Shown piece by piece: positions 3,538-62,590 of a stretch of 64,000 bases of DNA; the stretch's first letter is position 1; each line of letters opens with the position of its first letter. The position numbers and the translations under genes were made by a program. The notes below the pieces were generated by a model. That model saw only the letters and a list, made by a program, of their open reading frames with translations. It searched no databases and was not told the DNA's origin. Origin of the DNA: an uncultured bacterium (GTDB taxonomy: Bacteria; Omnitrophota; Gorgyraeia; Zapsychrales; Aceulaceae); contig CALGLP010000013.1 of the NCBI GenBank assembly GCA_937930175.1, positions 267,764 to 331,763 on the forward strand, read 5' to 3'.

Positions 3538-3538
3538 T

Positions 3539-3646
3539 CCCGTTAGAGAGTAGTAAAGCATTTACGGGGCAAGCTACGGTAGCTAAAATCATAATTAACT
3601 TTTGTTGAGATGACTGCTTTTCAAGTCTGCAGGCTCTCTAACGGGG
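3539..3646 (+). repeat. copy A of the intergenic inverted-repeat element (arms CCCGTTAGAGAG / CTCTCTAACGGGG, interior of about 83 nt). It lies between glyQS and ppdK.
   Basis: Perfect 12-nt terminal inverted repeat. The arms are nearly identical to those of copies B-E at 13.5-16.0 kb, but the interior is divergent. Confidence 0.6.
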
Positions 3647-9140: not shown

Positions 9141-9281
9141 GGCACGAGGGAAAAAGGCGCGCAAGTTTATCTAGATCTTTGAAAAGTGTTTTCATTTTGC
9201 GCCTGCCCCGATTGCTCTAGAAAGGCATCATGGTCCTCGGGACAAGCGCAAAATTTCCTAGAAATGATAATAATGAATCTT

Positions 9282-9372
9282 GCGCCTTGCTCACAGCCTT
9301 CTTTGAATTTAGATTTCAGAGAAGCTGGAGCAGGTGCATCCTTCCTTGAGAGGACATTAGCGTAGATGCGCC
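9282..9372 (+). repeat. 91-bp direct repeat, copy 1 (upstream of tRNA-Arg)
   Basis: Identical at 90 of 91 positions to 9453..9543. A degenerate third partial copy lies between them at about 9390..9420. Confidence 0.8.
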
Positions 9373-9452
9373 TTGTCCGCAACTGTCCTTGAATTTAAAT
9401 CAGAGGAAGTTGGGGCAGGCTCATTTCTTCTGGAAGTTATATTTAGGAAAAT

Positions 9453-9543
9453 GCGCCTTGCTCACAGCCTTCTTTGAATTTAGATTTCAGAGAAGCTGGA
9501 GCAGGTGCATCCTTCCTTGTGAGGACATTAGCGTAGATGCGCC
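9453..9543 (+). repeat. 91-bp direct repeat, copy 2; its last 5 nt are the first 5 nt of tRNA-Arg
   Basis: Direct comparison with 9282..9372. Confidence 0.8.
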
Positions 9544-9612
9544 TGTAGCTCAGATGGATAGAGCGCGGCTCTCCTAAGGCCGGCGTGGGCGGTTCGAGTC
9601 CGCCCAGGCGCA
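9539..9612 (+). tRNA. tRNA-Arg (anticodon CCT)
   Basis: Manually folded cloverleaf: 7-bp acceptor stem (GCGCCTG/CAGGCGC), D arm GCTC/GAGC, anticodon stem CGGCT/GGCCG with loop CTCCTAA (U33, anticodon CCT, A37), T arm GGCGG-TTCGAGT-CCGCC. CCA is not encoded. Confidence 0.85.
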
Positions 9613-9639: not shown

Positions 9640-9718
9640 TAGAGCAATCGAGAATCGAGATTTGAAAATGGATTGTTAAGCGACTCGATTGCGATCAATT
9701 CTCAATTATCAATTTTCA

Positions 9719-10069
9719 ATGTCTATGGCATTTATTTTCGAAAACCTCGATGTTTATCAGAAGGCTGTTGATTTTGCAGATGAGGTTTCTTCTTTAGCGG
9801 AAAAGTTCCCTAGAGGAAGTTACTACTTAGTTGACCAGCTCAATAGGGCCGCACTATCGATAGCCACTAATATCGCAGAAGGAAACGGAAAATATCACAA
9901 AGCCGATAGGATTAATTTTTTTAGGATTGCTCGTGGATCTGCTTTTGAATGTGTTCCTATCCTGGAAATTTGCAAGCGTAAGTCTTTGGTTGAAGAAAGA
10001 ACACATGCCGATTACAAGAAGAAGCTTGAAGATATCTGCAAGATGTTGTCCGGTCTTATGAATTATTAA
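9719..10069 (+). CDS. four-helix-bundle protein (TIGR02436 / 23S rRNA intervening-sequence protein family), copy 1
   Basis: Family signature: LDVYQKAVDFADEV...LVDQLNRAALSIATNIAEGNGKY...RIARGSAFEC. Three paralogs lie at 49031, 50230 and 59884. Confidence 0.8.
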   Translation: MSMAFIFENLDVYQKAVDFADEVSSLAEKFPRGSYYLVDQLNRAALSIATNIAEGNGKYHKADRINFFRIARGSAFECVPILEICKRKSLVEERTHADYKKKLEDICKMLSGLMNY

Positions 10070-10101
10070 ATAGAGCCATCGAGAAAGGTATCCTTCATTT
10101 C

Positions 10102-13521: not shown

Positions 13522-13522
13522 C

Positions 13523-13624
13523 CCCGTTAGAGAACTTCATACTAACGGTTTGATTGTCAAGGGTGATACACCGCGAGCGGTGTAGGGCCATAAACGGTAT
13601 TATTGGTAGTTTTCTCTAACGGGG
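13523..13624 (+). repeat. copy B of the intergenic inverted-repeat element (CCCCGTTAGAGAA ... TTCTCTAACGGGG)
   Basis: 13-nt perfect terminal inverted repeat. The interior (TAACGGTTTGATTGTCAAGGGTGATACA ... AACGGTATTATTGG) is shared with copies C, D and E. The element starts 2 nt after the upstream stop codon. Confidence 0.7.
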
Positions 13625-13655: not shown

Positions 13656-14834
13656 ATGCGAATTATTGCCATTGCGAATCAAAAGGGCGGATGCGGCAAA
13701 ACCACAACGGCGATCAATCTAAGCTCGGCCTTGGCCATCAATGGCCAAAAGGTTTTGCTCGTTGATTTGGACCCGCAGGCGCATGCGTCGCTAGGACTTA
13801 ACATTAATGCGCAGAATACCATTTATAATGTCATCTCTAAGCTTGCTCCGCGCAAGCTTTCCCTAAGTCAGATCATCGTGAAGGTCAAGGATCAGTTTGA
13901 TCTTGTGCCATCCAATGTTTTGGTGGGTACCCTTGAGCAAGAATTGGCTGATGAGATTGGCCGCGAGCTCAAACTTTTTTCCATTTTGAGCGAGCAAAAA
14001 GAGTATGATTATATCATTATTGATTGCCCTCCGAATTTAGGCTTTTTAACGATCAATGCCTTGCGTGCGAGTCAAGAGGTGATTATTCCCGTCGAGGCGA
14101 GCCGTTTTTCCATTCAGGGTGTTGGCCGGTTGATTGATATTATTGAACTCGTCAAGCAACGCCTCAATCATACGATTGACTATCGTGTCTTGGTAACGAT
14201 GTTTGATTCGCGTCTGCGCCATTCGTTTGAGATGCTGGCCAAGATCAAAGAAGATTTTGCGAAAAATTTAGCAGGGACGATCATTCATCTTAATGTCAAA
14301 CTCAAAGAAGCCGCGGCCGCAGGCGAGACAGTATCCTGCTATGACAAATATTCGCGGGGAAGCAAAGATTATTTTAGCTTGGCGAAAGAAATGATCATGG
14401 TTGGACAAAAGGATGGTCCTCGCGAGTCTTCGTTGAGCGCCCAGCCTATGGCTAAGTCTGTATCGCAGCCGATGTCTAAAGTGATGCGGGAGACGATTAA
14501 GGAGAAGGCCAAAGATTTTTCTCTTGCGAGCTTTACCTTGGTTGCCCCCGAAGCCAAGAATGTTTATTTGGCTGGCGATTTTAACAATTGGTATGTTGAT
14601 GAGTCTTGCCGTATGCAAAAGACGGATGGGCGTTGGCAGTCGGAGTTGAAATTAAAGCCGGGGGTGTACCAATACCGTTTTATTGTGGATGGTAAATGGC
14701 AAAATGATCCGGCGAACACGAGGCGTGTTGAAAATGCCTTTGGGGATTCTAATTCAGTTTTGGAGGTTCACCCCGTTAGAGAATTGCACACTAGCGGTCT
14801 GACTTTAAAGGGTGATGCACCGCCAGCACTGTAA
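13656..14834 (+). CDS. ParA/MinD-family ATPase fused to a C-terminal CBM48 (AMPK-beta / isoamylase-N type glycogen-binding) domain
   Basis: N-terminal deviant Walker A motif KGGCGKTT and ParA-type motifs (VLLVDLDPQAHAS, IIIDCPPNLG). The C-terminal 90 aa (LVAPEAKNVYLAGDFNNWY...GVYQYRFIVDGKWQNDPAN) match the CBM48/AMPK1_CBM fold signature. The last codons run into repeat copy C. Confidence 0.8.
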   Translation: MRIIAIANQKGGCGKTTTAINLSSALAINGQKVLLVDLDPQAHASLGLNINAQNTIYNVISKLAPRKLSLSQIIVKVKDQFDLVPSNVLVGTLEQELADEIGRELKLFSILSEQKEYDYIIIDCPPNLGFLTINALRASQEVIIPVEASRFSIQGVGRLIDIIELVKQRLNHTIDYRVLVTMFDSRLRHSFEMLAKIKEDFAKNLAGTIIHLNVKLKEAAAAGETVSCYDKYSRGSKDYFSLAKEMIMVGQKDGPRESSLSAQPMAKSVSQPMSKVMRETIKEKAKDFSLASFTLVAPEAKNVYLAGDFNNWYVDESCRMQKTDGRWQSELKLKPGVYQYRFIVDGKWQNDPANTRRVENAFGDSNSVLEVHPVRELHTSGLTLKGDAPPAL

Positions 14835-14873
14835 GATTGTTAATGGTATTATCGGCAATCTTCTCTAACGGGG
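14771..14873 (+). repeat. copy C of the intergenic inverted-repeat element
   Basis: Arms CCCCGTTAGAGAA / TTCTCTAACGGGG. The interior is similar to B and D. The 5' arm lies inside the last codons of the ParA-CBM48 CDS. Confidence 0.7.
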
Positions 14874-14932: not shown

Positions 14933-14983
14933 AGTCTTATAGGGTGATAACGATTAACAAGTTGTTGGTTTTCTCTAATGGGG
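14933..14983 (+). repeat. copy E (3' half only) of the intergenic element, ending TTCTCTAATGGGG 9 nt before the ATG at 14993
   Basis: GGGTGATAACGATTAACAAGTTGTTGG TTTTCTCTAATGGGG matches the 3' halves of B, C and D. No 5' arm is present. Confidence 0.5.
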
Positions 14984-43057: not shown

Positions 43058-43086
43058 GGGCGGCCCCGCCGTTGGCGGGGCTGCCC
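43058..43086 (+). terminator. GC-rich hairpin GGGCGGCCCCGCC-GTT-GGCGGGGCTGCCC
   Basis: 13-bp stem directly after the stop. No strong U-tract. Confidence 0.5.
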
Positions 43087-43195
43087 AATTCAAGAACAAA
43101 AATGTATGACTCAAAACTTGCATAAAAGAAAGGGATATCACCCTCACCCATAACCCAGGCCTTGAAAGAGGCCTAAACAAAAGGAGCAGAGAGAA

Positions 43196-45160: not shown

Positions 45161-45175
45161 GGAAGGTTAATAAGA

Positions 45176-45204
45176 GGGCGGCCCCGCCGCTGGCGGGGCC
45201 GCCC
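45176..45204 (+). terminator. GC-rich hairpin GGGCGGCCCCGCC-GCTG-GCGGGGCCGCCC
   Basis: Near-identical to the hairpin at 43058. Confidence 0.5.
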
Positions 45205-45360
45205 TTCAGAAAAAAGAAAATAAGAATGCATATCAACCACGCGCAAAAGAAATGAAGGGAAAGGAGGTGAGCTGATCTTAGTCTCTTCGTCAAGCGTCGG
45301 ACGCCATATAAAACCAAAAAGAACTTATTTTTAAAAAATACATAATACAAGGAGAAACTT

Positions 45361-47338: not shown

Positions 47339-47375
47339 GGGCTGACCCCGCCAACAGCGGGGTCAGCCCTTCTTA
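47339..47375 (+). terminator. intrinsic terminator GGGCTGACCCCGC-CAACA-GCGGGGTCAGCCC followed by TTCTTATATTT
   Basis: 13-bp stem plus a T-rich tail. Confidence 0.65.
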
Positions 47376-47475: not shown

Positions 47476-48981
47476 ATGGATATTAAACAACTTCTAATCG
47501 ATAAAGCGCGGATTTATTCGCAAAAGCCAGCCATTTTCTTTAAAGATCAGCCGATCAGCTTCAAAACTCTAGGTGAGCAGGTCTTTAAGTTGGCCAACGC
47601 CTTAAAGGTTTTAGGGGTTGCCAAAGGGGATAAGGTTGGGATATATCTGCCGAATTGTCCGGAATATATCTATAGCTATTTGGCTATCTTTTGTCTTGGT
47701 GCTACAGGTGTGCCGCTCGATTTTATGCTCAAGGAAGATGAGATCGCATCTTGCCTTACGCATGCTGAAGCAAAATACTTAATCTACATCCCCAAAGAAA
47801 ATCTATTGCCCCAAGAGCTTAAAGCCGTTGTCCCTAGCTTAAAAGAAATTATTAGTCTTCAGCCCCAGGTGGTTGGCACTCATGGGTACCATGAGCTTGT
47901 TGCGCAAGTCTCTTTAGATCCGATGAGCGTGTCTCTGAGTGAAAAAGATACAGCGCTTATTATGTACACCTCAGGCACGACCGGAAAGCCCAAAGGAGTT
48001 GTCTTGAATTATCGTCATCTCGATGGATCGCCGGCCGCGATGCATCATTTTGTGGATCTCAGTGATAAGGATGTGAAACTCTGTGCGCTTCCGTTAAGCC
48101 ACATCGCAGGGCTGATCTATATTCAAAATTGCCTTTTATTTGGGATCACGCTTGTTTTGATGGAGCGTTTTAATCCGGTGGAATTTTTGCGTCATGTCCA
48201 AGAATACAAGGTCACATGTTTTCATGTTGTGCCGGCGATGTACATGGCATTTTTGACATTGAAAAATATTGATAAATTTGATCTTGCGTCGATTCGCTGG
48301 ATGGTGGTTTTTGGCGCGCCAAACTCGCCGGATATGATGCGGCTGTTCCACAAGAACTGTTCGAATGCCAGGCTTTTGAACGGCTGGGGCATGACCGAGA
48401 CCTGTCCGCCTAATGTTGTGACACCCATGGACAGCGATAAGATCGAAAGCGTGGGCAAGCCGGCTCCGCATTGCGAGATACGGATTTTCGATGAAGAAGA
48501 AAAAGAATTAGCGCCAGGCGAGATCGGCGAAATCGTGATCAAGGGCTGGGTCGTGATGGATGGCTATTACAAAGATCCTGAGACAACAAAAAGCTTGATT
48601 TGGAACGGATGGTTTCATACCGGAGATTTAGGCCGTTTTGATGAGGAAGGATTTCTTTATATCGTTGGCCGCAAGAAAGAAATGATCAAGGTGGCCGGCC
48701 AGATCGTCTATGCCCCAGAGGTGGAAACCGTCTTGCACAAACATGTGGCGGTTGCTGAAGTCGCGGTCATTGGGGTTGCGGACAAACTGCGTGGTGAAGC
48801 GGTCAAGGCCTTTGTGACGCTTAAGCCTTCCGTCCTTGCGACCGCAGAAGAGTTGAGATTTTTTGCTAAAGACCATTTAGCGAATTTTAAAGTGCCTCAG
48901 GAGATTGTGATTTTATCCGAATTGCCGAAGAATAGATTGGGGAAGGTGGATAAGGAAAGATTGAAGATAGAGGGTAGATAA
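47476..48981 (+). CDS. AMP-dependent synthetase/ligase (acyl-CoA synthetase family)
   Basis: AMP-binding motif MYTSGTTGKPKGV, plus the GWGMTE and GDLGRFDEEGFLYIVGRKKEMIKV motifs. Confidence 0.85.
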   Translation: MDIKQLLIDKARIYSQKPAIFFKDQPISFKTLGEQVFKLANALKVLGVAKGDKVGIYLPNCPEYIYSYLAIFCLGATGVPLDFMLKEDEIASCLTHAEAKYLIYIPKENLLPQELKAVVPSLKEIISLQPQVVGTHGYHELVAQVSLDPMSVSLSEKDTALIMYTSGTTGKPKGVVLNYRHLDGSPAAMHHFVDLSDKDVKLCALPLSHIAGLIYIQNCLLFGITLVLMERFNPVEFLRHVQEYKVTCFHVVPAMYMAFLTLKNIDKFDLASIRWMVVFGAPNSPDMMRLFHKNCSNARLLNGWGMTETCPPNVVTPMDSDKIESVGKPAPHCEIRIFDEEEKELAPGEIGEIVIKGWVVMDGYYKDPETTKSLIWNGWFHTGDLGRFDEEGFLYIVGRKKEMIKVAGQIVYAPEVETVLHKHVAVAEVAVIGVADKLRGEAVKAFVTLKPSVLATAEELRFFAKDHLANFKVPQEIVILSELPKNRLGKVDKERLKIEGR

Positions 48982-49016
48982 GGTGAAGATGGAAAATGGA
49001 AGTTAGAAGTTGGAGG
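48982..49016 (+). repeat. left arm of the inverted repeat flanking four-helix-bundle gene copy 2 (GGTGAAGATGGAAAATGGAAGTTAGAAGTTGGAGG)
   Basis: Imperfect reverse complement of 49397..49425 (TCCATCTTCCAACTTCCATCTTCTATTGTC). Confidence 0.6.
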
Positions 49017-49030
49017 ATTGAAAAAGATTT

Positions 49031-49396
49031 ATGGCAATTCAAAAGTGTGAAGACTTAGAGGTTTATGCGTTGGCGTTTGATGCTGCAATGAGAATTTTTC
49101 AGCTAATAAAAGAATATCCAAAAGAAGAGACATACTCTTTAGTGAATCAGATAAGAATGTCGTCGAGGTCGGTCGCTGCCAATATTCGTGAAGGGTATGC
49201 TAAAAGAAAGTATCCAGATGTTTTTGTTAAGCATCTTAATGATGCGCTTGGATCGTCAGAAGAAACAGTAACATGGATCGATTTTAGTTGTCAGTGTGGT
49301 TATTTGCCAGAGAAGCAAGCAGTTGTTCTTAAGAAGACATATGCTTCCATTGGCGCTATGCTTTATCAATTGATGAAAGGGTGGCAAAAGTTTTAA
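49031..49396 (+). CDS. four-helix-bundle protein (TIGR02436 family), copy 2
   Basis: LEVYALAFDAAMRIF...LVNQIRMSSRSVAANIREGYAKR...LGSSEET. Confidence 0.8.
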   Translation: MAIQKCEDLEVYALAFDAAMRIFQLIKEYPKEETYSLVNQIRMSSRSVAANIREGYAKRKYPDVFVKHLNDALGSSEETVTWIDFSCQCGYLPEKQAVVLKKTYASIGAMLYQLMKGWQKF

Positions 49397-49425
49397 TCCA
49401 TCTTCCAACTTCCATCTTCTATTGT
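49397..49425 (+). repeat. right arm of the inverted repeat flanking copy 2
   Basis: See the left arm at 48982..49016. Confidence 0.6.
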
Positions 49426-49452
49426 CTATTTTTTTAAAGAAAGGATCCTTTT

Positions 49453-50205
49453 ATGACAATGCGTAAAGACATTCACTTGACCGGCCAGGATTTGATGCAC
49501 ATGGTGCAGCTGAGGCCGCAAGATATCGGTAAATACGCTCTTGTGCCAGGCCCCAAGGAGCGGCTCGATAGTCTTTTGAAAAAGATCGAGAATCCGGTTA
49601 AGAATTTTTCGTTCATGGAATATTCCATGTTTACCGGCACTTTCGCAGGAGCGAAGGTGACTGCGATCAATGGCGGACGATTTTCAGCGGATACGGCTAT
49701 CACGACGGAGATTCTCTGCAATGCGCAAGCCCAATACATGATCCGCATCGGCAGCTGCGGTGCTTTGCGCGAAGACATCAAGGTCGGGGATTTGATCGTG
49801 GCTGAAACCGCGATGCGCGGCGATGGCGTGACCCCGTATTATGTTAAAAATGATTTTAAGACTCAGGCTGATAGTGAGCTGACAAAGATCTTAAGCGATG
49901 TGGCGCAAGGCTCAGGCCTTAACGTCCATCAAGGCAAGGTGTGGTCCACGGATGCGATTTTGCGCGAGACGCGCGAGCATGTCGGCAAGGCTGTTGATGA
50001 GGGTTGTATCGCCGTGGACATGGTGACATCTGTTTTCTTAACCTTAGCGCAACTTTATAAAGTCAAAGCCGCGGTGATCCTTGCCGTCAGCGATAATATC
50101 ATTACCGGCGAAATGGGCTTTATGGATCCTAATTATTATATGGCTGAAGGATCAACGATTGGGATAGCGCTTAATTTGATAAAGAAGTTAGAGGGGAGAA
50201 GTTAG
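49453..50205 (+). CDS. PNP/UDP family-1 nucleoside phosphorylase (MTA / 5'-deoxyadenosine phosphorylase or nucleosidase-like)
   Basis: PF01048-type pattern (ALVPGPKERL, GGRFSADTAITTEIL, IRIGSCGAL, MRGDGVTPYY). Confidence 0.7.
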   Translation: MTMRKDIHLTGQDLMHMVQLRPQDIGKYALVPGPKERLDSLLKKIENPVKNFSFMEYSMFTGTFAGAKVTAINGGRFSADTAITTEILCNAQAQYMIRIGSCGALREDIKVGDLIVAETAMRGDGVTPYYVKNDFKTQADSELTKILSDVAQGSGLNVHQGKVWSTDAILRETREHVGKAVDEGCIAVDMVTSVFLTLAQLYKVKAAVILAVSDNIITGEMGFMDPNYYMAEGSTIGIALNLIKKLEGRS

Positions 50206-50223
50206 AAGGTAGAAGAAAGATAA
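50181..50223 (+). repeat. left arm of the inverted repeat flanking four-helix-bundle gene copy 3 (AAGAAGTTAGAGGGGAGAAGTTAGAAGGTAGAAGAAAG)
   Basis: Reverse-complementary to 50611..50635 (TTTCTCTCTTCTAACTTCTTTAAGG). Overlaps the last codons of the PNP gene. Confidence 0.6.
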
Positions 50224-50229
50224 GATCGA

Positions 50230-50610
50230 ATGCCGATTAAATGCTGCAAAGACTTGGAAGTGTACAATCGTTCGTTTCAAGTGGCGATGGTCATCTTTGA
50301 GAAAACCAAAATTTTTCCAGCTGAAGAGAAGTATTCTTTAGTTTCTCAGATTTTAAGATCGTCGCGTTCTGTTTCGGCAAACATTCGAGAAGGATATGCA
50401 AAGCGAAAATATCCAGATGTATTTGTAAGACATTTAAATGATGCTCTGGGTTCATCAGAAGAAACACAAACGTGGTTAGACTATTGTGAATCTTGCAGAT
50501 ATCTCGATCAGTTGACTTGTAAAAGATTAATAAAAGAATATGAGGAAATTTCAGCCATGCTTTTTGTTTTAATGAAATCGTGGCAGAAATTTGAGAAATC
50601 TAACGTCTAA
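50230..50610 (+). CDS. four-helix-bundle protein (TIGR02436 family), copy 3
   Basis: About 60% identical to copy 2 (LEVYNRSFQVAMVIF...SSRSVSANIREGYAKRKYPDVFV). Confidence 0.8.
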   Translation: MPIKCCKDLEVYNRSFQVAMVIFEKTKIFPAEEKYSLVSQILRSSRSVSANIREGYAKRKYPDVFVRHLNDALGSSEETQTWLDYCESCRYLDQLTCKRLIKEYEEISAMLFVLMKSWQKFEKSNV

Positions 50611-50635
50611 TTTCTCTCTTCTAACTTCTTTAAGG
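50611..50635 (+). repeat. right arm of the inverted repeat flanking copy 3
   Basis: See 50181..50223. Confidence 0.6.
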
Positions 50636-50640
50636 AACCT

Positions 50641-51609
50641 ATGACCGAATCTCCACTTTTTTGGCCAGCGAAATTTGAAGGCAAGACATTGCTTGTCCTT
50701 GATGAGACGCTGTTACCGGAAAAGATGTGCTATGTCAAAGTTCAGAATGTTGCGCAAGCCGTCAAGGTTATTCGTGAGATGAAGACCCGCGCCTTTGGCC
50801 AGTTTTTAGTTGTGCTAAGCACGTTTTTATTGGTACTTAAGAAAAATAAGACATGGAATGATGAGAAATTGATGGCTGAATTGCAAAAGACAGCCCAAGC
50901 CCTTAATGCTAGCCGTCCAACATTTCCGTTTGCAGAAGTAACTGGTATGATTATTGGTTGGGCTAAGAAAGACATGGAAAGTCATGTGCCTTTGCAGGTC
51001 GTGCTTCCTAAAAAGATCGATGGTTTCCTGCAAGGTATCCGTGGACGTCGTTTGGAGCGTGTACAAAGAATCGCGGATGTCTTGATGCAATATAATAATA
51101 TTTTAACGCATTGTAATGTGAGCGGCGAGCTCGCCATGGCAGCACAGCTTTGCAAGGCCAAGGGCAAGGAAATCAATTTCTTTGCAACGGAAACGCGTCC
51201 CTATTTTCAAGGTGCTAAATTAACGTGTTGGGAGCTCAATCGGGTCAAGGCACATGTCACGCTCGTTGCGGATAACGCTGTTGGAACGCTGTTGCGTGAT
51301 CATATGATTGATGCCGTGGTCATGGGATCCGATCGATCATGCGCCAACGGAGATGTCGCTAATAAAATTGGCAGCTATCAAATTGCTGTTGTGGCTAAAG
51401 AATTTGGCGTTCCAGTGTATGTGTTGACGCAGCCCTCGAATAAGATTCCAGCTGGCGCTGATATTCCCATTGAAGTGCGCCATGAAGACGAGCTTTTAAA
51501 ATTTAAGGGTAAGCGCATTACGCCAAAAGGCGTGAAGGGTTTTTATCCAGGGTTTGATGTTATTCCCAATAATCTAATCACACAAGCGATTGCCATCAAT
51601 GTTAATTGA
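50641..51609 (+). CDS. mtnA: eIF-2B alpha/beta/delta-family isomerase (S-methyl-5-thioribose-1-phosphate / 5-deoxyribose-1-phosphate isomerase, MtnA-like)
   Basis: ATETRPYFQGAKLTCWEL...VADNAVG...VMGSDRSCANGDVANKIGSY matches the MtnA / IF-2B family core. Confidence 0.7.
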   Translation: MTESPLFWPAKFEGKTLLVLDETLLPEKMCYVKVQNVAQAVKVIREMKTRAFGQFLVVLSTFLLVLKKNKTWNDEKLMAELQKTAQALNASRPTFPFAEVTGMIIGWAKKDMESHVPLQVVLPKKIDGFLQGIRGRRLERVQRIADVLMQYNNILTHCNVSGELAMAAQLCKAKGKEINFFATETRPYFQGAKLTCWELNRVKAHVTLVADNAVGTLLRDHMIDAVVMGSDRSCANGDVANKIGSYQIAVVAKEFGVPVYVLTQPSNKIPAGADIPIEVRHEDELLKFKGKRITPKGVKGFYPGFDVIPNNLITQAIAINVN

Positions 51610-52084
51610 AGAGAAAAAATCGATTGTTTTATTAAACGGCGTCTTTGAGGATGCTTTCTTTCATCTTTTAAAAGAACAAAAGATTAAGAAAGTGTATGTC
51701 CTTGAGGGTCGGCCGTATTTGGATGGAGCAAAGGCCTTGTGCTCAAAACTTATTAAGAATAGGATACAACCTGTTTTGATTGCAGATAATATGGCTGGGT
51801 TTCTTTTTTATAAAGATTTGGTGAAGGAGGTCTGGATTTCATACCAGGAGCCAGGTGACCAGAATATTTTAGCTAAGGTTGGGAGCCTTGTTTTAAGCGT
51901 GTTAGCGAAAAAGCATCAGGTGGCTGTTAAGGCCTTTCCGTCGGCCAAGCGTAAGAAATATATTGGTCATCCTAAAGATATTTTTAGCTTTGAGGGCAAG
52001 CGTGTTGCGGCCAAGGGTATTTATGGGTTTGTGCCGCTCTTAGAAGATGTCCCAAAAACATATTTATCGGAGATCTATTTATGA
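51590..52084 (+). CDS. truncated eIF-2B-family paralog (C-terminal Rossmann-like half only)
   Basis: VLEGRPYLDGAKALCSKL...VLIADNMAGFL...AKVGSLVLSVLAKKHQVAV parallels the C-terminal half of the preceding protein. Overlaps it by 20 nt. Confidence 0.5.
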   Translation: MPSMLIEEKKSIVLLNGVFEDAFFHLLKEQKIKKVYVLEGRPYLDGAKALCSKLIKNRIQPVLIADNMAGFLFYKDLVKEVWISYQEPGDQNILAKVGSLVLSVLAKKHQVAVKAFPSAKRKKYIGHPKDIFSFEGKRVAAKGIYGFVPLLEDVPKTYLSEIYL

Positions 52085-53076
52085 TCATCAACCGCGTGAA
52101 AAAAGAAATTATTGCATCTGGAAAACTGCTTTGGGAGAAAGACCTTGCTTCAGGGTTAAACGGCAATATCAGCTCTCGGGTGGACAACAAAAAGTATTTT
52201 ATTACTGGTCGCGGAACATGTTTAGGTCGGTTAAGCACCGCGGATATTGTTTTGACGGATGTAGAGGGAAACGTTTATGGTAAGGGTAAGCCGTCATCGG
52301 AAAAGACGTTGCATACGGCGATTTACAAGAATTTTCCTGAGGTGCAGGCGGTGATCCATACCCATTTAACGTATGCGGGTGGGTTTTTCCACGTGAATGA
52401 TACGCTTACACCCAGCACCTTTGAGTCCAGGCTTTATTTAGGAGAGGTTAAATGTGTCGCGCAGTTTACGCCGACAGTCACTGACATTGCGCCGGTTATC
52501 GAGGCGTTAAAGAAAAATAATATCATGGTTTTGAAAAACCACGGTGTTTTGGCCATGGGCAAAAACCTTTTTGACTGTTTTTTGCTGATCCAATGCCTGG
52601 AAGAGGCCGTGAAGATGGATGTGGTGAGCCAAATATATAGACAAGTTTCAAGTGAAAAGTTTCAGGTTTCAAGTAAAAATAAAGAACAAAAAGAGTCTAA
52701 AAGATTTAAGCTGTTTTCTAAAGAGCAGATCGATGAAATTGTGCGCCTTGTGAATGCGGATGAGCAATTAAAGAAGCTTGGTGAATCGACTAATATGACG
52801 ATGCGCCTGGCCGTCAAACTGGATGAGACAGGCCAGGCGTATTGCTTTGATTTTGAAAAGGGAAAGATCAAAAACGTGAGCAATGATGATAATGCTGAAT
52901 TTGTTGTATCAGCGCCGGAAAAAGTCTGGCGTGCTGTTTTTGCTCGTGAAATTGATCCCTTTGTAGCCACGACGCAAAAGAAAATGATCTTAAAAGGTGA
53001 CTTTGCCAAGATCTCCAAATGGTATGCGCCATGCTCGCGGCTTTTTGAGCTTTGGCAGCAAGCACCAGTGGAATAA
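52081..53076 (+). CDS. class II aldolase/adducin-domain protein fused to a C-terminal SCP2 sterol-carrier domain
   Basis: N-terminal aldolase_II pattern (SGLNGNISSRV...ITGRGTCLG...AVIHTHL) plus a C-terminal SCP2-like segment (YCFDFEKGKIKNV...MILKGDFAKISK). Confidence 0.75.
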   Translation: MIINRVKKEIIASGKLLWEKDLASGLNGNISSRVDNKKYFITGRGTCLGRLSTADIVLTDVEGNVYGKGKPSSEKTLHTAIYKNFPEVQAVIHTHLTYAGGFFHVNDTLTPSTFESRLYLGEVKCVAQFTPTVTDIAPVIEALKKNNIMVLKNHGVLAMGKNLFDCFLLIQCLEEAVKMDVVSQIYRQVSSEKFQVSSKNKEQKESKRFKLFSKEQIDEIVRLVNADEQLKKLGESTNMTMRLAVKLDETGQAYCFDFEKGKIKNVSNDDNAEFVVSAPEKVWRAVFAREIDPFVATTQKKMILKGDFAKISKWYAPCSRLFELWQQAPVE

Positions 53077-57391: not shown

Positions 57392-57485
57392 GGGAGAGGA
57401 TAGAAAGAAAAGGAAAGAAAATGGATTGAAGAATGGTTTTTTAATTCTTAATCGTTCATTTCTAACTTCTATTTTCTATCTTCGC
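57392..57485 (+). repeat. cargo-less inverted-repeat hairpin of the same family as the four-helix-bundle cassette arms (GAAGGGAGAGGATAGAAAGAAAAGG... / ...CATTTCTAACTTCTATTTTCTATCTTCGC)
   Basis: Purine-rich left arm and a CTTCTAACTTCT-containing right arm, with a small inner hairpin AAGAATGGTTTTTTAATTCTT. No ORF between the arms. Confidence 0.55.
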
Positions 57486-57499
57486 TACAAAGGTTCATT

Positions 57500-58498
57500 A
57501 TGAGCATTGCAATTATTGGCGCTGGTGCCATTGGATCTGTCGCAGCAGCTTTTCTTTCCAAAGCTGGCTTGGATGTTGTCTTGATTGGAAAAAAAGAACA
57601 GGTTGATTTTATTAATCAGCATGGGTTGACTGTCCGAGCTGTTCATGGAAGCGAGCATTTTAAAATTAGGGCCTTGCCGCATCTTGACAAGCCTTATGAT
57701 CTTGTTATTTTTACGGTCAAGACGCAGGATCTCGAAGACGCATATCATGCAAATCATGAATATTTAGATCATGGTCTTATTTTGACGAGCCAAAATGGTG
57801 TTCAGGCGGATAATATCTTGAGCTCCCATTTTGAGCGGGAAAAGATGTTTTCAAGTATTGTGATGTTTGGCGCAACGTATATCAATCCTGGTCAGGTGAT
57901 CTTTAATTTTGAAGGAAGCTGGATCATTGGAAAACCTTTCACGAATGTTGACCCTAAGACCCATGAGATCGCGGAGACCTTGGGGAAGGCTTTTCCCGTT
58001 GTTGTTTCAACCAATATCATGGGGATGAAGTGGCTTAAGCTTTTTGTGAATTTTAATAATTGTCTTTGCGCGGTGCTAGGGAAGTCGATGCAGGAAACAT
58101 TTGCGGATATGGATTTTTGTCGTGCGAGCATTATGCTTTTGAAAGAGGGCCTGGGCGTTGTTGAGCGGGCGCATATTGAACTGGTGTCGTTACCTGATTT
58201 TCCCGTTGATAGAATAGATGGGCTTGCGGCCATGCCGCTTGATCAAGCGGCGGCGATCATGCACAAAACATTGACATCGCTTAGCAAGGAACCGGTGTAT
58301 GGTTCAATTTTGCAAAGCGTGATGCGCAAGCGGACAAGTGAAATTGATTTTATCAACGGTGAGATTGTTCGTTTGTCCAGACAAATGCGCCAGGATGTGC
58401 CCCTCAATGAACGCATCGTGGATTTGGTGCATGAGGTTGAGCGGACAGGAAAATTTACAAGTGTTGAAGACGTGAAGAAGATTTTTAAGCTAGGATAA
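57500..58498 (+). CDS. 2-dehydropantoate 2-reductase family (ApbA/PanE-like NADPH oxidoreductase)
   Basis: N-terminal Rossmann motif IAIIGAGAIGS and ketopantoate-reductase family length and pattern. Could serve pantothenate synthesis or act as a ketoreductase in the cluster. Confidence 0.7.
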   Translation: MSIAIIGAGAIGSVAAAFLSKAGLDVVLIGKKEQVDFINQHGLTVRAVHGSEHFKIRALPHLDKPYDLVIFTVKTQDLEDAYHANHEYLDHGLILTSQNGVQADNILSSHFEREKMFSSIVMFGATYINPGQVIFNFEGSWIIGKPFTNVDPKTHEIAETLGKAFPVVVSTNIMGMKWLKLFVNFNNCLCAVLGKSMQETFADMDFCRASIMLLKEGLGVVERAHIELVSLPDFPVDRIDGLAAMPLDQAAAIMHKTLTSLSKEPVYGSILQSVMRKRTSEIDFINGEIVRLSRQMRQDVPLNERIVDLVHEVERTGKFTSVEDVKKIFKLG

Positions 58499-58502
58499 TG
58501 TG

Positions 58503-58580
58503 CATCGTGAAGCGTGAAGCCTGCTGTCGGCAGGCAAGAGTGAAGCGCGCGTTTCACGCAATACGAAATACGTTTCACGT
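58503..58580 (+). repeat. hairpin-forming repeat (CGTGAAGCGTGAAGC ... ATACGTTTCACG), related to 62512..62590
   Basis: Shares the CGTGAAGC(A/G)TGAAG and ATACGTTTCACG blocks with the element after the ACP gene. Confidence 0.55.
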
Positions 58581-59858
58581 ATGAAAGAAAGTTTACCCAT
58601 GAAAAAAAGACGAGTCGTAGTGACAGGAGTTGGGGTTGTGTCACCTAATGGTATTGGCAATGAAGCTTGCTGGAAGGGTATGATCAACGGCGTTTCCGGC
58701 GTCAAGCGCGTTACGGAGTTTGATGTGTCGATGTTCATGACCCAGGTGGCGGCGCAGGTCAGGGATTTTGATCCGCACAAGCTTGGACTAACGCACGATG
58801 AAGCCGTGCGTATGGATCGTTATGTTCAATTTGCTGTTGTTGCGGCGCGCATGGCGCTGGAAGATTCCAAGATGGATTTAAGTAAAGTCAATAAAGAGCG
58901 CATGGGGGTTTCGCTTGCCAATGCGATTTGTGGCACCAAATATATGGAAGAAGAGTTTGCGCTTGTGACCGACAGTGGCAAGGAAGCCATTGATCCGGCC
59001 AAGGTGCGACCGGATCTTTACGACGCGGCGATGTTTAATACGCCTTCGAGTGAGATTTCGGCGAAGTATGGCCTGAAAGGAATCTGCAATACGATTTCAA
59101 CGGGGTGTACGGCGGGGACCGATTCTGTCGGGTTTTCTTTTGAAACGATTCGCGATGGCGATATCGATATCATGATTACTGGTGCTTCCGAGGCACCGAT
59201 CACGCCCATTACATTTGGTGCTTTTGATGTGGTTAATGTTTTGGCTGTGCGCAATGATGAACCTGAAAAAGCCTCGAGGCCTTTTGATAATGAACGCAAT
59301 GGATTTGTTATTTCAGAAGGCTGCGGCATTTTGATCCTCGAAGAGCTTGAGCACGCCAAGGCGCGCGGGGCCAAGATCTATTGCGAGGTCATTGGTTTTG
59401 GAACAACGTGCAATGCCTATCACATGACGGATCTGCCATCTGATGGCGAACCGATGAAGGATTGTATTGTTTTGGCCATGGAAGATGCAGACATTAAGCC
59501 GCAAGATATTGATTATATTAATGCACATGGCTCGTCGACTAGACAAAATGATGTCTTTGAAACCAATGCCTATAAAATGGCGTTAGGGGATTGGGCGTAC
59601 AAGATTCCTATTAGCTCGCTCAAGTCTATGATCGGACACCCTCTAGCTGGCGCTAATGGTGTTGAGCTAGCGGTGGGTGCGTTGATTTTTGAACGTAACA
59701 TGTTGCCGCCAACCATTAATCAGGTGCATCCTGATCCGGCATGCGATTTGGATTATGTGCCCAATGTCGCGCGTCCTAAGGTTGTCAATTGTATGCTTAA
59801 AACTTCGAGTGGTTTTTCTGGAGTGCATTCGTCGATGGTATTAAGGAGGTATAAGTAA
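58581..59858 (+). CDS. beta-ketoacyl synthase (KS; FabF/KS-alpha-like, catalytic Cys-His-His intact)
   Basis: Active-site context ISTGCTAGTDSV and the His motifs INAHGSST and MIGHPLAGANG. Start may be the ATG at 58599. Confidence 0.85.
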   Translation: MKESLPMKKRRVVVTGVGVVSPNGIGNEACWKGMINGVSGVKRVTEFDVSMFMTQVAAQVRDFDPHKLGLTHDEAVRMDRYVQFAVVAARMALEDSKMDLSKVNKERMGVSLANAICGTKYMEEEFALVTDSGKEAIDPAKVRPDLYDAAMFNTPSSEISAKYGLKGICNTISTGCTAGTDSVGFSFETIRDGDIDIMITGASEAPITPITFGAFDVVNVLAVRNDEPEKASRPFDNERNGFVISEGCGILILEELEHAKARGAKIYCEVIGFGTTCNAYHMTDLPSDGEPMKDCIVLAMEDADIKPQDIDYINAHGSSTRQNDVFETNAYKMALGDWAYKIPISSLKSMIGHPLAGANGVELAVGALIFERNMLPPTINQVHPDPACDLDYVPNVARPKVVNCMLKTSSGFSGVHSSMVLRRYK

Positions 59859-59860
59859 AA

Positions 59861-59888
59861 ATGTGTTATGTGAGATGTGATATGTGAG
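59861..59888 (+). repeat. left arm of the inverted repeat flanking four-helix-bundle gene copy 4 (ATGTGTTATGTGAGATGTGATATGTGAG)
   Basis: Reverse-complementary (with a few mismatches) to 60316..60341 (CACCTGACACATATCACATGACACAT). Confidence 0.65.
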
Positions 59889-60285
59889 AGGCAAAGAAAA
59901 GACAGTGAGTGTGAATTATCATCTATATAATTTTGATTTTGAAAAGCTTGATGTGTATCAGGAAGCCTTAGATTTTGCGAATGATGTATTTAAAATTACG
60001 AATGGTTTTCGAAGAGAGATCCAGTATTCTTTGGGAGATCAATTTAGGAGAGCTGCGCTTTCCATCTGCAATAACATCGCTGAGGGAAGTCAGAAAACAA
60101 CCCGGGGGAGAAAACAGTTTTATCATTATGCCCTGGATTCTGCTAGGGAATGTATTCCGATGATCAGTTTGTCCTTAAAGCAAAAAGAGATCTCACCTGA
60201 TGTTGAGATGCAGTTAAGGGGAAGGTGCTTGAAGATTTGTAATATGGTCTATAGACTCATACGATCTGTCGATGACAAGGGTTGA
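59884..60285 (+). CDS. four-helix-bundle protein (TIGR02436 family), copy 4; inserted between the KS and CLF-like genes
   Basis: LDVYQEALDFANDVF...LGDQFRRAALSICNNIAEGSQK...ALDSAREC. Start codon uncertain (GTG at 59884 or 59911). Confidence 0.7.
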   Translation: MRGKEKTVSVNYHLYNFDFEKLDVYQEALDFANDVFKITNGFRREIQYSLGDQFRRAALSICNNIAEGSQKTTRGRKQFYHYALDSARECIPMISLSLKQKEISPDVEMQLRGRCLKICNMVYRLIRSVDDKG

Positions 60286-60315
60286 CATTCCGGGCGTTGA
60301 TTTTTGTTTTACATT

Positions 60316-60341
60316 TCACCTGACACATATCACATGACACA
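60316..60341 (+). repeat. right arm of the inverted repeat flanking copy 4
   Basis: See 59861..59888. Confidence 0.65.
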
Positions 60342-60361
60342 TTTTTAAGAAAGGTTTTTCA

Positions 60362-61612
60362 ATGAAGAAGATTGCTATTACAGGAATGGGCATTGTGTCC
60401 CCCAGCGGGATCGATGAAAGAAAATTTTGGGCCAATATTAGCCATGGCCGCTCAGCGGTTAAGAAAATAGAACGGTTTGATGCGTCAAAATATCCATCGC
60501 GTATCGCCGGACAAGTGCATGAGCTAGATGCTTATAGCAACGTATCGTCGAGACTTCTGAAGAAAATTGATGTTTTTTCGCATATGGCGCTTGTAGCTTC
60601 AGAAATTGCTATTCAAGACGCCAAGCTTGACATGGAAAAGGAAAATTTAAAACGCGCTGGTATTTTTGCCGGTAATGCGATTGGTGGTTGGCTCTACGCT
60701 GAAACAGAGCTACGCGATATGTATATCGAGGGGCGTGAGGGGGTTAGTCCTTTTATGGCCTCGGCATGGTTTCCTGCCGCGCCTCAGGGGCAGATTTCCA
60801 TTCATTATAAAATGAAAGGCTATAGCAAGACGATTGTCTCGGATCGCGCGAGTGCCTTGATGGCGATTGCTTATGGTGCGAAAAATCTTAACGATGGAAA
60901 AAATGATTTTATCTTGGCGGGGGGCATGGAGGCACCGGTGTCGCCGTATGGACTTTTGTGCTGCAATACGTCGGGTGTTCTCAGCAAGCGAAATGATGAC
61001 CCAGAGACTGCCTATCGTCCTTTTGATAAAACACGTGATGGTTTGGCTATTGCCGAAGGCGCCGGTATTCTTATACTAGAAAAGGAAGAACGTGCTAAAA
61101 AGCGTGGTGTGCCTATTAATGGATATATTATTGGCTATGGAACGACCACGGATGGCATTGATCGCATCGAACCGGCTAGTGATGGACTTCAGCTCGCGCG
61201 GGCGATTGAACTCGCCCTTGATGACGCAGAGCTTGAGCCTGGCCAGATTGATTATGTTTGTTTGGACGGTGTCGCGACACCGATTGGCGATATTTCGGAA
61301 ACGCGCGGTATCAAAAAGGCTTTTGGTGCGCATGCGAAAAAGATCCCTATGTCTGCGCCTAAGTCTGTTTTTGGTAATATGTTGGGAGCTTGTGGGGCTG
61401 TGGATGTTGCGGCGACCCTTTTAGCCATGGAGCATGCAACAGTTCCACCGACGATCAATTTGACGCATCCGGATCCTGATTGCGATTTGGATTATTGTCC
61501 TAATAAAGCGCAGAGCAAAGAAATCAAATATGCTCTTGTGATTAATCGCGGACGCGGCGGGATCAATTGTGTTTTAGTTTTAGAAAAGGCCAATGAAAAT
61601 GAATTTCTTTAA
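60362..61612 (+). CDS. ketosynthase-like protein lacking the catalytic triad (chain-length-factor / KS-beta-like)
   Basis: Full thiolase-fold KS length and a GxGxG N-terminus. Aligning with the upstream KS, the active-site Cys position is SDRASA, the first His motif is LDGVATPIG, and the second is GNMLGACGAV (His replaced by Asn). No C/H/H remains. Confidence 0.8.
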   Translation: MKKIAITGMGIVSPSGIDERKFWANISHGRSAVKKIERFDASKYPSRIAGQVHELDAYSNVSSRLLKKIDVFSHMALVASEIAIQDAKLDMEKENLKRAGIFAGNAIGGWLYAETELRDMYIEGREGVSPFMASAWFPAAPQGQISIHYKMKGYSKTIVSDRASALMAIAYGAKNLNDGKNDFILAGGMEAPVSPYGLLCCNTSGVLSKRNDDPETAYRPFDKTRDGLAIAEGAGILILEKEERAKKRGVPINGYIIGYGTTTDGIDRIEPASDGLQLARAIELALDDAELEPGQIDYVCLDGVATPIGDISETRGIKKAFGAHAKKIPMSAPKSVFGNMLGACGAVDVAATLLAMEHATVPPTINLTHPDPDCDLDYCPNKAQSKEIKYALVINRGRGGINCVLVLEKANENEFL

Positions 61613-62511: not shown

Positions 62512-62590
62512 CGTATTTCGTCGATCGTGAAGCATGAAGTGATAAAAGTTTTTTAAAATACGTTTCACGCATAACGATTCACGAGTAAAA
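62512..62590 (+). repeat. hairpin-forming repeat related to 58503..58580
   Basis: CGTGAAGCATGAAG ... ATACGTTTCACGCATAACGATTCACG. Confidence 0.5.

Follow-up and report, generated by a model that had tools for sequence, protein, structure and literature searches.

A PF05635 gene within a heptad-repeat inverted repeat between ketosynthase and CLF-like genes of an Omnitrophota bacterium: a probable mobile unit of the rRNA intervening-sequence type

In a 64,000-nt stretch of DNA from an uncultured bacterium of the Omnitrophota (GenBank assembly GCA_937930175.1, contig CALGLP010000013.1, positions 267,764 to 331,763; hereafter the window, numbered from its first letter), a small gene for a four-helix-bundle protein of the PF05635 family lies between two polyketide-type genes, one encoding a ketosynthase (KS) and the other a paralogue resembling a chain length factor (CLF). 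Gene and surrounding arms, which are built from tandem heptanucleotides, make up the segment 59856-60347. We consider this segment, with a probability of roughly 70%, to be a mobile unit of the kind known from rRNA genes as intervening sequences (IVSs), co-transcribed with its operon and forming a stem that is probably a substrate of RNase III. We do not count the cassette among the pathway genes of the polyketide cluster.

Anatomy and occupancy of the KS-CLF junction

The arms of the cassette, detected in an inverted-repeat search, occupy 59856-59900 and 60303-60347 of the + strand; each is 45 nt long and they are 78% complementary. Local alignment over 34 positions gave 31 paired ones, 28 Watson-Crick and three G·U, with no A·C; its score was 44, and none of 30 shuffles exceeded 23 (z = 11.6). 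The arms also paired with each other in the minimum-free-energy RNA fold of 59840-60365. Among inverted repeats with arms no more than 700 nt apart, the three longest in the window flank copies 2, 4 (the present cassette) and 3 of its PF05635 genes, copy 2 having the longest. The core of the copy-4 left (5′) arm consists of four heptads (ATGTGTT ATGTGAG ATGTGAT ATGTGAG, 59861-59888), is G/T-rich and lacks C; the right (3′) arm is C/A-rich and complementary to it, with the core CACCTGACACATATCACATGACACAT at 60316-60341. An earlier note on this DNA, prepared from its letters, had pointed out these arm sequences and their dissimilarity to the arms of copies 2 and 3. Both observations were borne out, the latter arms being of a purine-rich type (GAAGTTA/GAAGGTA); the make-up of the arms from tandem 7-nt repeats had escaped it. 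A census of period-7 tracts over the 64 kb returned exactly four, one adjoining each PF05635 gene and the copy-4 left arm among them, where shuffles gave a mean of 0.05; no tracts were found at periods 5, 6 or 8. One candidate reason for the heptads, the provision of stop codons in all three frames, was rejected as a general one: many heptads hold TAA, TGA or TAG, but several types (GTGTCAA, CCGTGCA) hold none.

The upstream KS gene (58599..59858, + strand; Pfam ketoacyl-synt and Ketoacyl-synt_C) has the residues Cys/His/His when aligned with its downstream paralogue. Its start is likely ATG 58599, because orthologue alignments begin at residues 7-10 of the open reading frame (ORF) from 58581, and its stop codon TAA (59856-59858) is formed by the first three bases of the copy-4 left arm. 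The downstream gene (KS-beta; 60362..61612, + strand; Pfam KS domains) is 36% identical to KS. The replacement of its catalytic Cys by Arg and of the two His by Asp and Asn justifies the name CLF-like. Between the right arm and this gene, sequence comparison identified a retained host spacer (60348..60361, + strand) that contains the CLF ribosome-binding site (AAGAAAGG) and corresponds by homology to GAAAGGTAG, the spacer at the empty junctions of the related clusters L003-L005 described below. The KS-CLF locus of the window is present in two public assemblies. We detected no promoter- or terminator-like signal above chance inside the cassette in a scan of 58400-60500, and Rfam at gathering thresholds returned one tRNA alone over the window, its hairpins matching no curated RNA family.

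The ORF of the cassette (IVP copy 4; 59884..60285, + strand, from GTG 59884) matches PF05635, the family of 23S-rRNA-intervening-sequence (S23p), Avd-like proteins, at 85.7 bits, where the curated cut-off is 33.8 (E = 3e-24). Alignment of homologues places the likely true start at an in-frame GTG, 59905 or 59911, for a protein of about 124 aa. All four window copies (9689..10069, 49031..49396, 50230..50610 and 59884..60285) exceed the cut-off; by phmmer the copy 1 protein is closer to copy 4 than to copies 2 and 3, and its placement in the PF05635 protein tree, for which it was translated in the wrong frame, is to be disregarded. We recovered 220 homologues of copy 4 (57-73% identity), with 30 invariant columns in their alignment, and the protein is under purifying selection. 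The G..R...S...N..E motif is found in copy 4 as GDQFRRAALSICNNIAEGS; in the homologue alignment R55, S60, N63/N64 and G68 are invariant and G51 and E67 nearly so. An AlphaFold2 model of the monomer, built from the family alignment, predicts four long helices and a short N-terminal turn (pLDDT 94.7). Searched with Foldseek, the predicted structure had its top match in 2gsc (XCC0516; TM 0.82/0.92, rmsd 1.4), followed by 2rld (BT_0352; TM 0.73/0.85), both of the S23p family, and then by Avd (4dwl) and the ribonucleoprotein (RNP) of a diversity-generating retroelement (DGR; 8ub7). The copy-4 profile matches the 2gsc sequence (E = 1.6e-10), and 2gsc and 2rld have five chains each.

With the CLF-like protein as query we collected 31 orthologous clusters (60-90% identity). 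A KS+CLF tree comprised the 28 clusters with both genes, namely 25 genome-derived ones plus the window, L040 and L041; all trees are neighbour-joining trees of short proteins. The KS-CLF spacer measures -1 to 18 nt in 11 of the 28. In the three nearest relatives of the window (84-90% CLF identity) the junction is empty, with 14 nt in L003, 13 nt in L004 and 18 nt in L005, and these spacers (..TGA AAGGTAGA.. / ..TAA ACGAAAGGTAG..) match the window sequence 3′ of the right arm (..CACATTTTTAA GAAAGGTTTTTCA ATG). This places the element precisely in the gap that separates the KS stop codon from the CLF ribosome-binding site. The earlier note had read the cassette as an insertion and had named an alignment of intergenic regions from homologous clusters as the check; the empty junction of the three closest clusters agrees with that reading. 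It had also reasoned that a conserved gene present at this position in all such clusters and free of repeat arms would speak for a functional cluster member. We found the PF05635 gene to be absent from 25 of the 28 clusters and to be accompanied by arms wherever it occurs at this junction, that is, in the window and in the distantly related L040, L041/L042/L043 (Omnitrophica WOR_2 GWA2_47_8) and L048. In L040 and L041/L042/L043 homologues of copy 4 with 66-72% identity lie between KS and CLF within heptad arms. The three clusters on the tree that bear the gene are scattered, each with a sister without it. These same-site cassettes came from the protein-homologue search route; searching the 31 genome-derived orthologous loci with the four window proteins, by tblastn and by an iterated hidden Markov model built on them, turned up no PF05635 gene.

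The junction has further kinds of content. In L007, L008, L014, L020, L026 and L027 the spacers of 72-158 nt are heptad-armed hairpins without cargo. L008 and L027 have the GTGTTAT/ATAACAC kind seen in the window arms, and in L008, L027 and L020 the empty arm pairs envisaged in the earlier note do occur with a matching heptad type at this very junction. Unrelated small cargo was seen in L009 (4987-5594), L012 (5206-6000), L016 (4504-5028) and the spacers of L010, L024 and L029. By eye, such cargo includes a two-gene module (~67 aa plus ~130-147 aa) that is possibly toxin-antitoxin-like, a HicB-like gene and small membrane ORFs. The absence of heptad arms around the other cargo of these six loci led us to abandon the notion of a general-purpose holder of cassettes. 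L007, L008 and L009 have near-identical KS/CLF genes and three different junction contents, and the KS-CLF junction is therefore a hotspot; the PanE-KS junction is likewise variable.

Related cassettes and known heptad-repeat systems

Scanning metagenomes with aligned copy-4-like proteins yielded 80 loci, from which 61 non-redundant full-length cassettes were analysed; their contexts are those of metagenome assemblies, with ORF calls made in this analysis. Fifty of the 61 had a flanking inverted repeat that scored above all shuffles (z > 5), in controls that do not model relatedness. The median arm length is 34 nt, typically with about four heptads per arm, and the same base recurs with a frequency of 0.637 at a lag of 7 and 0.60 at a lag of 14, against 0.18-0.34 at other lags. 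Arms and gene are closely fitted: the median distance is 4 nt from the end of the left arm to the start codon and 9 nt from the stop codon to the right arm. C makes up 6% of the left arms and G 8% of the right arms, G exceeding C in the left arm of 48 of 50 cassettes, and the stems contain 92 G·U against 52 A·C pairs (p = 0.001). The neighbouring genes are co-oriented with the cassette in 54 of 54 cases upstream and 48 of 53 downstream, at median gaps of 48 and 46 nt. We counted at least 25 distinct contexts, including KS|CLF, X|FabD, T2SSE|T2SSF, grpE|dnaK and Wzy|glycosyltransferase. Copy-4-like cassettes recur at X|FabD (7), T2SSE|T2SSF (5) and KS|CLF (4), and copy-3-like genes, with the purine-rich heptads GAAAATC, GAAGATA and CAGAAGT in their arms, sit in ParA-like|epimerase, Wzy|glycosyltransferase and grpE|dnaK gaps.

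The type of heptad follows the protein clade, and genomic contexts are interleaved on the protein tree. Relatives of copy 4 carry GTTTAAT, GTGTAAG, GCGTAAT/C, GTGTAAT, CAGTTTA and GTGTCAA/GTGTTAT; by subfamily, the IVP4-like cassettes have GTGTNAN-type heptads and the IVP2/3-like ones GAARNTN or CAGARGN-type heptads. The discrete arm types for which the earlier note had proposed to look are thus present, sorted by PF05635 protein subfamily. A left arm found its best partner in its own right arm in 19 of 50 cassettes and had it among its top three in 35 of 50, with a median arm-pairing score of 44 for matched and 21 for mismatched arms. Protein identity was 67% for same-site pairs and 67% (up to 76%) for different-site pairs; KS|CLF-site proteins are 65-69% identical among themselves and 57-76% identical to X|FabD-site proteins. 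Because they are no more alike than proteins at other sites, the KS|CLF-site proteins are not orthologues by simple vertical descent. Two explanations would fit: movement of the unit among a small number of junctions, or homogenisation between the copies of one genome.

Cargo-less heptad hairpins are frequent in co-oriented gaps of Omnitrophota (L007 3499-3605, L008 7225-7315, L021 9850-9958, L052 846-943 and others); their heptads include GTTCAGT and GTCGTAA, four times each, and CATCAGA-type and CAGCTAT-type repeats. In L117, L118 and L120, PF05635 genes lie between same-orientation arrays (up to ~12 copies) of CCGTGCA/CCGTTTG/CCGTGGA heptads, which are direct and not inverted. A weak Y1_Tnp (IS200/RAYT-like) match was seen in L131-L133 (~2923-3366), two genes downstream of a copy-3-like cassette, and none was seen in the window.

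The same design occurs in rRNA. A tblastn search of plasmids gave eight records. One of them, Azospirillum lipoferum AZO_p2, has a homologous ORF (33% identity) within a 23S rRNA gene, the locus scoring 2540 bits throughout with Rfam LSU_rRNA_bacteria; the ORF stands between the arms GAGGACG GATGACA GAGGACG GAGGACA and CCGTCCT CTGTCTT CTGTCAT CCGTCTT, which are paired with each other when folded (z = -7.3). A gene annotated as 'four helix bundle protein' in Nostoc punctiforme pNPUN01, between a tyrosine recombinase gene and hypothetical genes, is enclosed by GGGTGTG/ACACCCT heptad arms with a stem of 28 bp (z = -6.0). The IVS of Coxiella burnetii comprises an S23p ORF and a 28-bp stem of terminal repeats with tandem GACAGAT heptamers, and RNase III cleaves within the stem (PMC4990558). 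With the ORF-bearing 23S rRNA IVSs of Coxiella, Leptospira and Azospirillum the window cassette shares a size of ~430-500 nt, a PF05635 ORF in the loop, a stem of ~28 bp or more, tandem heptamers in the 5′ arm and the existence of ORF-less hairpin versions at like sites. Those IVSs lie in rRNA helices and have to be excised for a working ribosome, whereas the window cassette is not within 16S or 23S rRNA and occupies the spacer of two protein-coding genes, KS and CLF-like. Stem, heptads and S23p ORF all match, and in structure it differs from an ORF-bearing IVS in nothing but its location.

ORF-bearing rRNA IVSs, the Coxiella heptamers, the hairpins of cyanobacterial STRR (short tandemly repeated repetitive) elements and PF05635 genes in cas operons are already known. 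STRR sequences, tandem repeats of 7 bp, fold into hairpins in the gaps of co-transcribed gene pairs such as hupS-hupL, with no function assigned (PMC2670836), and an STRR-type insert in RNase P RNA is on record through a citation of Vioque (1997) in PMC2858038. They resemble the cargo-less hairpins described here; they are reported as cargo-less and as cyanobacterial, from heterocyst-forming species, whereas the window cassette carries a gene and its host belongs to Candidatus Omnitrophota. In the open-access literature, with subscription journals mostly outside, we found no paper that links STRR or other heptad repeats to PF05635 beyond the Coxiella paper, none that ties STRR sequences to rRNA IVSs, and no description of heptad-armed PF05635 cassettes in operons. 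PF05635 genes have been reported inside cas operons, for example between cmr3 and cmr2, together with the GxxRxxxSxxxNxxE-type motif that copy 4 also has (Zhang and Ye 2013, PMC3936711); that study read them as a functional CRISPR-Cas association and reported no flanking repeats, whereas the pattern seen here suggests generic intergenic insertion.

Two other comparisons concern the fold and the repeats. The Avd protein of DGRs (4dwl, 8ub7) forms a pentameric barrel and has the same fold as the predicted copy-4 structure (TM 0.73/0.89); in the DGR RNP, five Avd protomers all contact an RNA stem-loop encoded directly 3′ of avd, reusing the same residues (bioRxiv 10.1101/2023.10.23.563531). Heptad arms are no feature of DGRs, and the sequence similarity of copy 4 to bAvd is below threshold; a non-exhaustive scan of the called genes of L001 and the scanned window proteins found no reverse transcriptase and no template/variable repeat beside any copy. 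Repetitive extragenic palindromic (REP) sequences with their BIME (bacterial interspersed mosaic element) and REPIN arrangements, and miniature inverted-repeat transposable elements (MITEs), are likewise short palindromic intergenic elements in operon spacers and polymorphic between relatives. REPINs and MITEs have near-identical copies per genome and depend on a REP-associated tyrosine transposase (RAYT) or another transposase; in contrast, the window arms differ between copies, and its elements are heptad arrays that carry a conserved non-enzymatic gene. A tblastn search with a Y1_Tnp fragment found no Y1/RAYT transposase in the window.

Other cassettes, hairpins and repeats of the window

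Copy 2 (48986..49432, + strand; arms 48986-49036 and 49382-49432, ORF 49031..49396) sits between an AMP-binding enzyme gene and a PNP_UDP_1 phosphorylase gene and has the heptads GAAGATG GAAAATG GAAGTTA GAAGTTG. Copy 3 (50180..50632, + strand; arms 50180-50213 and 50599-50632, ORF 50230..50610) has GAAGTTA GAGGGGA GAAGTTA GAAGGTA, and its left arm overlaps the final codons and the stop of the upstream phosphorylase gene. Left-arm heptads extend into the 3′ end of a host gene here (50180-50205), in L134 (~1440-1482, Wzy_C) and in L137 (~1405-1449, grpE), so that the last residues and the stop of the host protein are encoded by the repeat. Copies 2 and 3 bracket a single gene, the PNP_UDP_1 phosphorylase, in an operon (47476-53076) that resembles one for methionine salvage, with an AMP-binding enzyme, the phosphorylase, two IF-2B-family genes and a class II aldolase. 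Copy 1 (9645..10090, + strand; ORF end at 10069) is atypical. A complete heptad hairpin (9645-9720) lies upstream of the gene, its right arm, TCAATTC TCAATTA TCAATTT TCAAT, abutting the start codon (ATG 9719/9725); 3′ of the gene there is a left-arm-like fragment alone, TAGAGCCATCGAGAA, a direct repeat of the left-arm start TAGAGCAATCGAGAA at 9640. It looks like a rearranged or tandem arrangement.

Cargo-less hairpins of the window also lie near the KS gene. One, with a purine and a pyrimidine arm, is found between a DUF2621-like gene and the PanE/ApbA gene (57393..57486, + strand; -25.7 kcal/mol on the + against -18.0 on the - strand, z = -2.0, below the heptad-tract threshold). The earlier note had described this hairpin in the spacer 57392..57485, and we recovered it with its purine and pyrimidine arms and the terminal TCTAACTTCT; it is weaker than the cassettes, with arms of 23-25 nt at 72-83%. 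It may plausibly be read as a 'solo' member of the family of arms found at copies 2 and 3. A second hairpin, with CGTGAAG CGTGAAG / CGTTTCACG arms, lies between PanE/ApbA and KS (58506..58579, + strand; -32.8 against -25.8 kcal/mol, z = -2.7). A weak third one, of the GTGAAG type, lies between the acyl carrier protein and cyclase genes (62518..62584, + strand; z = -0.8, not significant on energy alone). In general, the hairpins fold more stably on the + than on the - strand.

Three repeat features of the window are separate from these elements. An 86-nt unit, repeated 3.1 times with 70% matches (9281-9544), lies directly upstream of a tRNA gene (9539-9612) and runs into it. A second family of intergenic inverted repeats (3538-3646, 13522-13624, 14771-14873 and 14972-14981) has the termini CCCCGTTAGAGA...TCTCTAACGGGG, ~90-105 nt apart; its 10-mer has 11 matches against 2.07 expected and is unrelated to the heptad arms, and the family might represent a small MITE or else a structured RNA. 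GC-rich hairpins that are almost identical to one another (GGGCGGCCCCGCC-GYTG-GCGGGGCYGCCC), at ~43058-43090, ~45174-45206 and ~47340-47372, follow large genes for FG-GAP / InlB-repeat surface proteins and look like a repeated terminator.

Mechanism, alternatives and implications

We propose that an IVS-type element entered the operon after the KS stop codon and ahead of the CLF ribosome-binding site, and that the cassette is read through as part of the KS-CLF transcript. Read-through is the simplest assumption because the cassette lies on the operon strand and has no promoter- or terminator-like signal of its own. In the transcript, the arms would pair to a stem of 34-45 bp with the PF05635 gene in the loop. 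This stem would most likely be cut by RNase III, a cleavage shown for the Coxiella IVS and proposed here by analogy with the 23S rRNA IVSs. The cut would free the mRNA of the small gene and split the KS and CLF messages, and the host operon may tolerate the insert because CLF keeps its own ribosome-binding site. The unit would spread, or be exchanged, among operon intergenic sites and decay to cargo-less heptad hairpins. We infer this mobility solely from the distribution of the cassettes, since comparison of filled and empty sites gave no convincing target-site duplication (at most TAA on both sides) and no recombinase was found.

That no convincing duplication and no recombinase came to light weighs against a mobile unit of this kind, as do several other observations. 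Eleven of the 61 related cassettes are without a significant inverted repeat, some of them with direct heptad arrays on both sides, and copy 1 departs from the layout in which arms enclose the gene. Among the related loci about a quarter of the cargo-less heptad hairpins are of reversed polarity, the C/A-rich arm preceding its partner. The G·U excess is modest, 64% observed against ~53% predicted from arm composition. The repeated occupation of the same three or four junctions in separate lineages could also stem from early insertions that were lost many times over, combined with gene conversion inside genomes, and strong protein conservation together with recurrent sites could point to a benefit for the host rather than mere tolerance.

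It is conceivable that the hairpin belongs to the host, as an STRR-like mRNA hairpin that stabilises or couples messages, and that the PF05635 gene landed in its loop independently of the arms. The cargo-less heptad hairpins at the KS-CLF junction of six clusters fit this, as do the STRR hairpins between co-transcribed cyanobacterial genes (PMC2670836) and the inverted repeats scoring at least 28 in 30 of 219 co-oriented gaps, about half of which are heptad-periodic. We nevertheless think it improbable, because the heptad type tracks the PF05635 clade across unrelated genomes and sites, a left arm pairs best with its own right arm, heptad tracts in the window are confined to PF05635 neighbourhoods, the closest relatives have no hairpin at the KS-CLF site and the other junction cargo of L009, L012 and L016 has no such arms. 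To a non-autonomous DNA transposable element, mobilised by a transposase encoded elsewhere and with a functionless RNA stem, we likewise assign a low probability. Terminal inverted repeats, presence/absence polymorphism, many contexts and MITE-like cargo-less derivatives would be expected of one, and the weak Y1 transposase match in L131-L133 is only two genes away from a cassette. Against it stand, besides the lack of an evident duplication and the absence of a transposase from the window and from the cassette, whose one ORF is the four-helix-bundle gene, the orientation of the cassettes, always that of host transcription, the preponderance of G·U over A·C pairs on the coding strand, an identical design in rRNA that is processed at the RNA level, and the variation of arm sequences among copies of one genome, unlike in MITE/REPIN families.

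That the four-helix-bundle protein should be an accessory subunit or regulator of the KS/CLF polyketide pathway, with incidental repeats, is very improbable. Such a role would suit the good conservation of the protein, a related copy next to FabD in a second fatty-acid/polyketide-like locus and the gene's identical placement in no fewer than four clusters of Omnitrophota (window, L040, L041/L042/L043, L048), but the gene is missing from most clusters on the tree, the three nearest included, its subfamily also occurs at T2SSE|T2SSF and in more than 20 other contexts, and the KS|CLF-site proteins do not form a clade. A chance match between compositionally simple, G/T-rich and C/A-rich arms is already refuted by the comparison with shuffles, by the rank of the repeat among the three longest in the window and by its counterparts in 50 of 61 homologous cassettes. 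The mobile IVS-type unit is thus the reading that we prefer. We add, as a speculation to which we give rather little credence, that a PF05635 pentamer might recognise its own arms with one protomer per heptad. The suggestion draws on the five Avd protomers that grip a stem-loop next to avd and on the presence of four to five heptads per arm. Such pairing of protein and arms might define and propagate the element, and rRNA IVSs, STRR hairpins and operon cassettes might then form one hitherto unrecognised class of mobile RNA-structured elements built on an Avd-like nucleic-acid-binding protein and not on a transposase.

IVS elements have been treated for more than 30 years as oddities of rRNA genes, and to our knowledge S23p proteins have no known function. 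The gene-plus-heptad-arm unit described here occurs in ordinary operons, at polyketide, fatty-acid, secretion, chaperone and polysaccharide loci, and rRNA genes would then be one of the places where a general element lands. The unit points to a possible origin of heptad-repeat hairpins of the STRR-like kind and offers a direct hypothesis for the PF05635 protein, namely specific binding to its own heptads. It would also account for the 'four helix bundle' genes found in the midst of biosynthetic and cas operons, which should not be read as pathway components, and it predicts that normally translationally coupled pairs such as KS/CLF would be uncoupled post-transcriptionally where the unit has inserted.

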